Origin: Escherichia coli
GTDB lineage: Bacteria; Pseudomonadota; Gammaproteobacteria; Enterobacterales; Enterobacteriaceae
Assembly: GCF_048403405.1 (NCBI RefSeq)
Contig: NZ_CP183129.1
Strand: one strand, 5' to 3'
DNA length: 64,000 nt
Shown here: piece after piece, positions 56,721 to 59,659 of the stretch
Position numbering within the stretch: the first letter of the stretch is position 1
Layout of the letters: the number at the start of each line of letters is the position of its first letter
The notes under the pieces: generated by a model
What the model was told of the DNA's origin: nothing
Databases searched by the model: none
What the model saw: only the letters and a program-made list of their open reading frames with translations
Position numbers and translations under genes: made by a program

Positions 56721-58337
56721 ATGCTCAGTCAAATTCAACGCTTTGGCGGCGCGATGTTCACGCCAGTGCTGCTGTTTCCCTTCGCCGGGATTGTGGTGGG
56801 TCTTGCCATCTTGCTGCAAAACCCGATGTTTGTCGGGGAATCACTGACCGATCCGAACAGTTTATTCGCGCAAATCGTACACATTATTGAAGAGGGCGGT
56901 TGGACGGTATTCCGTAATATGCCGCTGATTTTTGCTGTCGGTTTACCCATTGGCCTTGCTAAGCAAGCGCAGGGGCGAGCTTGTCTGGCGGTGATGGTGA
57001 GTTTCCTGACCTGGAACTATTTCATCAACGCGATGGGAATGACCTGGGGAAGCTACTTCGGCGTCGATTTCACTCAGGACGCGGTGGCAGGTAGCGGTCT
57101 GACAATGATGGCCGGGATTAAAACCCTCGATACCAGCATTATCGGCGCAATTATCATTTCCGGCATTGTGACGGCGCTGCATAACCGTCTGTTCGATAAA
57201 AAACTGCCGGTTTTTCTCGGCATTTTCCAGGGGACGTCTTATGTGGTGATTATCGCCTTCCTGGTGATGATCCCCTGTGCCTGGCTGACATTGCTCGGCT
57301 GGCCAAAAGTACAAATGGGGATTGAATCTCTGCAAGCGTTCCTGCGTTCGGCGGGTGCGCTTGGGGTCTGGGTTTACACCTTCCTCGAACGTATTCTGAT
57401 CCCAACCGGTTTACACCACTTCATCTACGGACCGTTTATCTTTGGTCCGGCAGCTGTTGAAGGCGGCATTCAGATGTACTGGGCGCAGCATCTGCAAGAG
57501 TTCAGTCTGAGCGCCGAGCCGCTGAAATCGTTGTTCCCGGAAGGCGGTTTTGCCCTGCACGGTAACTCAAAAATCTTTGGTGCCGTGGGCATTTCTTTAG
57601 CGATGTACTTCACTGCCGCACCGGAAAATCGGGTAAAAGTGGCGGGCTTGCTGATTCCCGCAACCTTAACCGCCATGCTGGTGGGAATTACCGAACCGCT
57701 GGAATTTACCTTCCTGTTCATTTCACCGTTGCTGTTTGCGGTACACGCCGTGCTGGCGGCCTCAATGTCGACCGTGATGTATCTCTTTGGTGTGGTGGGC
57801 AACATGGGCGGAGGTCTGATTGACCAGGTTTTACCGCAAAACTGGATCCCGATGTTCAGCAACCACGCGGATATGATGCTGACCCAAATCGCCATTGGGT
57901 TGTGCTTTACCCTGCTGTACTTCGTGGTTTTCCGCACCCTGATTCTGCAATTCAACATGTGCACGCCGGGACGTGAAGATGCGGAAGTGAAACTCTACTC
58001 AAAAGCCGAATACAAAGCCTCGCGAGGCCAAACCACCGCGGCAGAGCCAAAAAAAGAGCTGGATCAGGCTGCCGGTATCCTGCAAGCCCTGGGCGGGGTC
58101 GGCAATATCTCCAGCATTAACAATTGCGCGACGCGTCTACGTATTGCACTGCATGACATGTCACAAACGCTGGATGACGAAGTCTTTAAAAAGCTGGGAG
58201 CGCACGGCGTCTTCCGTAGTGGCGATGCCATTCAGGTGATCATTGGTCTGCATGTATCCCAGCTGCGTGAACAGCTCGATAGCTTAATTAATTCTCATCA
58301 ATCAGCAGAAAATGTTGCCATTACGGAGGCAGTATAA
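56721..58337 (+). CDS. glvC: PTS alpha-glucoside-family EIICB component (intact)
   Basis: Start at the ATG after AAGAGGA; EIIC membrane domain followed by EIIB with CATRLR phospho-cysteine motif; one uninterrupted 538-codon frame. Confidence 0.85.
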
Positions 58338-59659
58338 TGACCAAATTCTCAGTGGTTGTCGCAGGCGGTGGAAGCACCTTTACGCCAGGCATCGTGTTGA
58401 TGCTCCTGGCGAATCAGGACCGTTTCCCGCTTCGTGCACTGAAATTTTATGATAACGATGGTGCGCGGCAGGAAGTGATTGCCGAAGCCTGTAAAGTCAT
58501 CCTTAAAGAAAAAGCGCCGGATATTGCGTTTAGTTACACCACCGATCCTGAAGTGGCATTCAGCGACGTTGATTTTGTCATGGCGCACATCCGCGTCGGC
58601 AAATACCCGATGCGCGAACTGGATGAAAAAATCCCGCTGCGCCACGGCGTTGTTGGTCAGGAAACTTGCGGACCCGGCGGAATAGCGTACGGCATGCGTT
58701 CCATTGGCGGCGTCCTGGAACTGGTGGATTATATGGAAAAATATTCACCAAATGCCTGGATGCTCAACTACTCCAACCCGGCAGCCATTGTCGCAGAAGC
58801 CACGCGTCGTCTGCGCCCGAATGCGAAAATCCTCAACATCTGTGACATGCCAATCGGTATTGAAAGCCGGATGGCGCAAATTGTTGGGCTGCAAGATCGC
58901 AAACAGATGCGCGTGCGCTACTACGGCCTGAACCACTTTGGCTGGTGGACATCAATTGAAGATTTGCAGGGCAACGACCTGATGCCCCAGCTGCGGCAAT
59001 ATGTCTCTAAGCACGGTTATGTTCCACCGCAGCAAGATACACATACTGAAGCGAGCTGGAACGACACCTATGCAAAAGCGCGGGATGTCCAGGCACTGGA
59101 CCCGGATACATTACCAAACACCTATCTGAAATATTATCTCTTCCCGGATTATGTCGTTCAGCATTCCAACCCTGAACATACCCGCGCGAATGAGGTGATG
59201 GAACATCGCGAGAAACAGGTTTTCGATGCTTGCCGCGCCATTACGGCGGCAGAAAATTCAGCGGCGGGCAAGCTGGAAATTGACGAACATGCGTCATATA
59301 TCGTCGATCTGGCGGCGGCAATTGCCTTCAACACTCAGGAGCGGATGTTGCTGATTGTGCCTAACAACGGGGCAATTCATAACTTTGATGATGAAGCGAT
59401 GGTCGAGATCCCGTGTCTGGTCGGGCACAACGGACCAGAACCACTGGTGGTCGGCGATATCCCGCAGTTTCAGAAAGGGTTAATGAGTCAGCAAGTGGCG
59501 GTGGAAAAACTGGTCGTGGACGCCTGGGAGCAGCGTTCATATCAGCACCTGTGGCAGGCGATTACGTTGTCGAAAACGGTACCGAGCGCCGCGGTCGCCA
59601 AAGCTATTCTGGATGAGTTGCTGGAGGCCAATAAAGCGTACTGGCCAGAGTTACGTTAA
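58337..59659 (+). CDS. glvA: 6-phospho-alpha-glucosidase (glycoside hydrolase family 4), intact
   Basis: 440 aa; N-terminal Rossmann motif [13 protein letters not shown] typical of GH4; start overlaps the glvC stop (TAATG). Confidence 0.85.

Follow-up and report, generated by a model that had tools for sequence, protein, structure and literature searches.

The closest described relatives of the operon treated here are aglA and aglB of Klebsiella, which reportedly act on sucrose isomers, methyl-α-glucoside and isomaltose, in work attributed to Thompson et al. in 2001 and Pikis et al. in 2006. As stated in PMC5309279, Escherichia coli gains the use of isomaltose from Klebsiella aglA/aglB (citing Thompson 2001 and Pikis 2006); the same paper treats the homologues in K-12 as cryptic or truncated, with reference to Reizer 1994, Thompson 1995 and 2001, and Pikis 2006. 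Among Klebsiella clinical isolates, 98.9% are palatinose-positive (PMC3877295). Here, we analyzed the yidP-glvC-glvA locus in a 64,000-nucleotide stretch of an E. coli genome (contig NZ_CP183129.1, assembly GCF_048403405.1), referred to below at its full length as the window. We consider it probable (roughly 0.8) that this locus is an intact, competent and ancestral enterobacterial α-glucoside operon of the phosphotransferase system (PTS), corresponding to Klebsiella aglA-aglB and the regulator upstream of them. Underlying this reading are the following observations: the genes are whole, fall into recognised families, keep their catalytic residues, have evolved under selection and lie in conserved synteny, and the K-12 lesions were traced through the population.

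The original prediction, made from the letters of the window and a list of open reading frames (ORFs), had described an uninterrupted EIICB permease gene of 538 codons with a CATRLR motif, coupled through TAATG to a full-length glycoside hydrolase family 4 (GH4) gene and flanked by a divergent GntR gene (yidP) and a convergent AraC gene (yidL), and each of these features was found in place (Table 1). At the junction between the two structural genes, the last A of the glvC stop codon is the A of the glvA ATG (TAATG at 58335-58339, a one-base overlap); a GGAGG precedes the glvA ATG by 7 nt, and an AGAGGA precedes that of glvC. As judged by family membership, the 538-aa GlvC is an α-glucoside-specific PTS EIICB permease and the counterpart of AglA. 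It matched TIGR02005, the model for α-glucoside-specific PTS IIBC proteins, with 959.2 bits (cut-off 607.3), and residues 2-523 span the whole model (positions 1-524) without a break. The Pfam domains PF02378 (PTS_EIIC, residues 10-346) and PF00367 (PTS_EIIB, residues 453-482) are both present, as are a GITEP motif at residues 322-326 and the CATRLR motif at residues 469-474, in which Cys469 aligned with the cysteine of the ITRLR motif in the structure of E. coli PtsG; an EIIA domain is absent. In RefSeq, the full-length EIICB of 538 aa goes under the name ‘PTS sugar transporter subunit IIB’, which understates the protein. The equivalog NF007255 (161 positions) matches residues 378-538, i.e., the span of the K-12 GlvB fragment, and the label likely arose because this model outranks TIGR02005.

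GlvA (440 aa) is assigned by its sequence to the NAD+- and Mn2+-dependent 6-phospho-α-glucosidases of GH4, as the counterpart of AglB, with glvG as its remnant in K-12. Both GH4 domains, PF02056 (Glyco_hydro_4) and PF11975 (Glyco_hydro_4C), were detected, and the protein aligned gap-free with the near-identical PDB 6dux, which we take to be the K. pneumoniae enzyme, over residues 1-439 (912 bits, E=5e-274), and also gap-free with B. subtilis GlvA, 1u8x (752 bits, E=2e-225). Solved structures at 74-89% identity thus fix the family membership, while 6-phospho-β-glucosidases matched at no more than 212 bits. In 6-phospho-α-glucosidases of GH4, a Cys and a His are the Mn2+ ligands, an Asp and a Tyr are catalytic, and a GxGS motif binds NAD+; the residue roles in B. 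subtilis GlvA are those reportedly given in the 1U8X paper of Rajan et al. in 2004. The alignment with 1u8x placed the NAD+ motif of the window protein at residues 10-13 (GGGS) and equated Cys169 and Asp170 (within CDMP), His200 and Tyr263 with Cys171, Asp172, His202 and Tyr265 of the B. subtilis protein. A concealed frameshift or truncation in glvC or glvA, a danger that the original prediction had itself raised, was ruled out by the full-length model match, the gap-free structure alignment with 6dux and the comparison with orthologues from 32 other species, in which GlvA measures 438-440 aa and GlvC 527-552 aa.

The contrast with K-12 was then resolved at the level of single bases. Between yidP and yidL, the annotation of MG1655 lists glvC of 1107 bp (368 aa), glvB of 486 bp (161 aa) and a pseudogene, glvG, of 815 bp (b3683, b3682 and b4556, respectively), in agreement with the original prediction that K-12 glvC is split and glvG truncated. 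Base-by-base alignment of window 55700-60600 with MG1655 showed 52 substitutions and one gap (98.9% nucleotide identity), and two of these differences are disabling, so that K-12 does not share the intact frames. The first is a C to T change at window 57825, by which Gln369 (CAG) becomes TAG and glvC is divided into glvC and glvB. Since the K-12 glvC-glvB span is still 1617 bp, in frame and as long as the window glvC, ‘glvB’ is the tail of glvC restarted at Met378; in the PtsG alignment, the amber falls within the EIIC domain, ahead of the last membrane segment, and not at a domain boundary. The second is a 508-bp deletion with endpoints inside 8-bp GAACCACT direct repeats at 58930-58937 and 59438-59445. 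It removes GlvA residues ~199-367, including the Mn2+ ligand His200 and Tyr263, shifts the frame and leaves the 212-aa GlvG.

To place these lesions in the species, 5426 complete E. coli genomes were surveyed. The glv locus was present in 4279 of them (4267 at a coverage of at least 80%), and a 476-bp stretch from within the K-12 deletion was found in 1652 (30%), including O157:H7, O55:H7, O145:H28, BL21 and NCTC122. By subtraction (4267 with the locus at that coverage minus 1652 with the segment), the 508-bp deletion is carried by ~2600 genomes; this natural allele is thus widespread, and it originated between the 8-bp repeats. Exact 61-mers around codon 369 recovered CAG in 3222 genomes and TAG in 348, and the four TAG genomes among the matches listed (ER1709, ET12567, BM28 and MC4100) are all laboratory strains. 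In a further ~1150 genomes, yidE directly abuts yidL and yidP-glvCA is absent, in agreement with the listing of glvC among the genes missing from B2 strains (Touchon et al. 2009, PMC2617782). One genome with this arrangement, AR_0058 (locus L003, 2213-2303), has yidE followed by yidL and also carries a frameshifted yidJ. All 13 individually inspected loci with the segment had full-length glvC and glvA and no pseudogene flag, and 39 near-full-length rows among the matches listed had the RefSeq label ‘6-phospho-alpha-glucosidase’ on the gene under the match. Thus, the original prediction was right that the operon is intact here and broken in K-12, but the intact state is not peculiar to this strain, being retained by ~30% of complete genomes: it is ancestral and common rather than a rarity, and intact E. 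coli glvCA is already known, annotated in RefSeq, and ordinary.

The intact alleles carry the marks of strong purifying selection. Among them, glvC shows 11-31 synonymous and only 0-2 non-synonymous differences, with a ratio of non-synonymous to synonymous substitution rates (dN/dS) of 0-0.04; the corresponding values are 0-0.11 for glvA and 0-0.04 for yidP, at dS up to 0.08. In 8 of the 13 inspected genomes, the GlvC protein (WP_000952127.1) is identical despite 11-24 synonymous differences, and this protein is common to O157:H7, 118UI, U1, NCTC122 and others. Measured against the columns that are invariant in the 32 other-species orthologues, GlvA departs at 2 of 291 (A224S and F245Y) and GlvC at 6 of 247 (A292S, A350S, H380S, D430E, V498F and E520D), none of them inside a known catalytic motif. 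The low dN/dS and the retained invariant residues suggest that GlvC and GlvA are, or recently were, in use, and the earlier proposal that the pathway may be functional is, on these grounds, very plausible.

The arrangement is also conserved beyond E. coli. Scanning one genome per species, followed by tblastn mapping of related loci, showed that the order yidE-yidP(–)-glvC(+)-glvA(+) is kept in Citrobacter, Klebsiella, Raoultella, Kluyvera, Enterobacter, Kosakonia, Cedecea and Buttiauxella, that the yidP-glvC-glvA core recurs in Serratia, Aeromonas, Proteus, Pectobacterium and Brenneria, and that yidP holds its position upstream of glvC in 40+ species. Two departures were seen on the way. In Citrobacter braakii ATCC 51113 (locus L008, 2782-4504), the glvC orthologue is split over two ORFs that overlap (2782-3552 and 3479-4504). 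The split looks like an independent inactivation by frameshift, and glvA beside it is intact. In Kluyvera and Superficieibacter (loci L011, L012 and L031), a second, paralogous cluster lies directly downstream of the first (~5865-9770), with YidP-like and GlvA-like matches in all three loci and a GlvC-like match in L031 only.

YidP, a regulator of the GntR/HutC type, contains a GntR winged helix-turn-helix (PF00392, residues 2-63) and a UTRA effector domain (PF07702, residues 85-223). In the collection of papers searched, nothing relevant to its function was found; its domains and conserved position make it the presumed repressor of the glv operon and counterpart of the regulator beside aglA in other Enterobacteriaceae. 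Alignment of 23 orthologous yidP-glvC intergenic regions revealed three blocks conserved across genera (Table 1). The inverted repeat is a reasonable candidate for the YidP operator. Were TATCCT the –10 element, the centre of the CRP-like site would fall near –61, as in class I promoters. Scanning the window with the CRP consensus gave 199 matches against 219 expected, so that the pattern alone is uninformative and the site not significant by itself; the match at 56592-56607 was retained, as no more than a candidate, because of its conservation across genera. As a separate observation, yidP is annotated as frameshifted and ~79 bp shorter beside intact glvC and glvA in BL21 (locus L005, 344-981) and LT883142 (locus L090, 244-881), and the BL21 operon could be derepressed through this frameshift.

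Table 1. Positions of the glv genes, control elements and K-12 lesion sites in the window
Feature	Position	Strand	Remarks
yidP	55709..56425	-	divergent from glvC; GntR and UTRA domains; RefSeq annotation on a 100%-identical record
yidP-glvC divergent control region	56426..56720		295 bp
Inverted repeat GTCTAC-N14-GTAGAT	56546-56575		candidate YidP operator; GTAGAC in other genera
CATGAAAGCGATCACG	56592-56607		weak CRP-like site; right half matches TCACA 4/5, whole site 3 mismatches
TATCCT	56648-56653		candidate -10
glvC	56721..58337	+	ATG 56721, TAA 58335-58337; 538 codons plus stop, zero internal stops (ORF list and raw sequence)
Codon 369 (CAG, Gln)	57825..57827	+	position of the K-12 amber (TAG) in the alignment with MG1655
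glvA	58337..59659	+	440 codons; full-length GH4 gene
Repeat-bounded segment	58930..59445	+	two 8-bp GAACCACT direct repeats; 508 bp lost in K-12
yidL	59656..60549	-	AraC family; convergent with glvA

At the other end of the operon, the stop codons of glvA and yidL overlap by 4 bp (59656-59659), which leaves no space for a terminator between the genes, and transcription of either would read antisense into its convergent partner. The original prediction had placed yidL in the setting as a regulator, and while its convergent position stands, a role in glv regulation is unlikely: yidL remains with yidK-yidJ in genomes that have no glv, is not beside glvCA in most other genera, and follows glvA together with yidK in only 4 of ~45 enterobacterial loci. 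On this co-occurrence it was rejected as a glv regulator, and it probably belongs to yidKJ. Consistent with this, in LT883142 and NCTC122 (loci L090 and L091, 4112-5892), a degraded tnpA of the IS200/IS605 insertion sequence (IS) family and a TnpB (InsQ) gene replace yidL-yidK-yidJ downstream of intact glvCA; yidH comes next, and a 75-bp remnant of yidL is left.

For the substrate range, the EIIA partner, the regulation and indeed the expression of the operon, we infer the following scheme. GlvC would import an α-glucoside (e.g. methyl-α-glucoside, isomaltose or a sucrose isomer like palatinose) and phosphorylate it at O6 of the glucosyl moiety via Cys469. Because GlvC has no EIIA domain of its own, a separate EIIA, presumably EIIA-Glc (Crr), would have to donate the phosphoryl group, through a predicted relay from phosphoenolpyruvate via EI, HPr and EIIA-Glc to Cys469. 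GlvA, translationally coupled to GlvC through TAATG, would then cleave the 6-phospho-α-glucoside to glucose-6-phosphate and the aglycone by the NAD+/Mn2+-dependent redox-elimination mechanism of GH4. YidP, as a HutC-family protein with a UTRA domain, most likely keeps the divergent promoters repressed for as long as no phospho-sugar effector has accumulated, and CRP may co-activate the glv operon.

Several points weigh against a working operon. Other glucoside operons, e.g. bgl, asc and chb, are kept intact yet silent in E. coli, and routine identification schemes score the species palatinose-negative, which, if correct, would be odd were the operon active in 30% of strains. The collection of papers searched yielded no expression, growth or α-glucoside phenotype data for E. 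coli with intact glvCA. A simple scan of 56350-56800 gave no strong sigma-70 promoter or terminator, with no good promoter in the 295-bp control region, and within every conserved block the intergenic sequence of E. coli differs at several positions from the consensus across genera. Moreover, glvA has been lost in half of the species with no obvious cost, so that selection for the pathway would be niche-dependent at best. These points would fit an operon that keeps its frames but is not transcribed in E. coli, in the manner of bgl, asc and chb, with no phenotype unless activated by mutation, e.g. by loss of yidP. Such an operon could also account for the repeated independent loss (the 508-bp deletion, the whole locus in its turn, and the amber), and the yidP frameshifts in BL21 and LT883142 could then be activating events. 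We nevertheless judge silence under ordinary conditions to be unlikely: dN/dS values of 0-0.11 across lineages at such dS argue that the proteins are selected, and therefore expressed, in nature, the residues invariant in other genera are almost completely retained, and catabolic operons that depend on an activator normally have a weak promoter.

Intactness could mislead in another way, if subtle missense changes or a defective partner had left the system functionally like that of K-12. Candidates for such changes are the departures from otherwise invariant columns, notably His380 to Ser, Val498 to Phe and Ala292 and Ala350 to Ser in GlvC, and the EIIA partner gene crr, like ptsH and ptsI, lies outside the window. 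However, there are only a few substitutions, most of them conservative and none in a known catalytic motif, dN/dS is far below 1, and the GlvC allele is typical of the species rather than a strain-specific lesion; crr, for its part, is a core gene of E. coli. We therefore hold such hidden inactivation to be very improbable, and an intact and competent operon remains our preferred reading.

As a discovery, the intact locus carries little weight, given that descriptions of K-12 glv as cryptic or truncated go back to the 1990s, that the orthologous system of Klebsiella has been characterised, and that the intact genes of E. coli already have their RefSeq annotation. Its practical meaning is that K-12 is a poor reference for the α-glucoside PTS pathway. 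Strains like BL21, in which glvCA is intact and yidP broken, might be able to use isomaltose or panose-type sugars as they are, a capacity that engineers have added via foreign genes. A bolder proposal is that the three-state polymorphism (intact, glvA with the 508-bp deletion, or locus absent) marks a metabolic split, in which ~30% of the species, including O157:H7 and BL21, would use dietary α-glucosides like isomaltulose, isomaltose or maltitol via glvCA, constitutively where yidP is frameshifted as in BL21. We offer this tentatively and would place the odds somewhat against it; if true, it would mean that a phenotype of relevance to the niche has been overlooked, and that an industrial host has a trait that could be put to use.

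Elsewhere in the window, two observations concern the tna region. A 726-aa ORF on the plus strand (29806-31986) adjoins tnaA (27711-29141, minus strand) and contains the N-terminal domain of the ShET2 enterotoxin (PF07906, E=6e-48); we take it to be foreign to the K-12 tna neighbourhood. Upstream of tnaA, a perfect CRP palindrome, TGTGAATCGAATCACA, lies at 29497-29512 and presumably corresponds to the CRP site already known from the tna promoter.

Set beside the described systems, the K-12 glvC-glvB-glvG cluster, the ‘cryptic’ locus of Reizer et al. 1994, is the same locus with the same flanks as that of the window, and differs in carrying both the Gln369 amber and the 508-bp deletion, whereas the window operon carries neither. 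The aglA/aglB genes of K. pneumoniae ATCC 13883 encode proteins of equal lengths, at 81% (GlvC) and 89% (GlvA) identity to the window proteins, in the same gene order. The K. pneumoniae sequence (locus L023) ends just upstream of glvC, and the upstream flank was compared in Klebsiella indica and Raoultella, where a divergent GntR-family gene and yidE are found. The conserved order and these identities argue that E. coli inherited its locus vertically, as the counterpart of Klebsiella aglA/aglB, with the difference that function is demonstrated in the literature for the Klebsiella genes and the E. coli alleles are known from sequence. The glvA-glvR-glvC (malA-malR-malP) operon of B. subtilis, a maltose PTS operon, is more distant, with GlvA ~74% identical, its catalytic residues kept, and GlvC ~61% identical. 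Its regulator is of the RpiR type, not GntR/HutC, its main substrate is maltose, and the Bacillus gene order differs, glvA standing first and glvC downstream (loci L075, L079, L080 and L086). The chemistry, PTS uptake followed by GH4 hydrolysis, is shared with the window operon.

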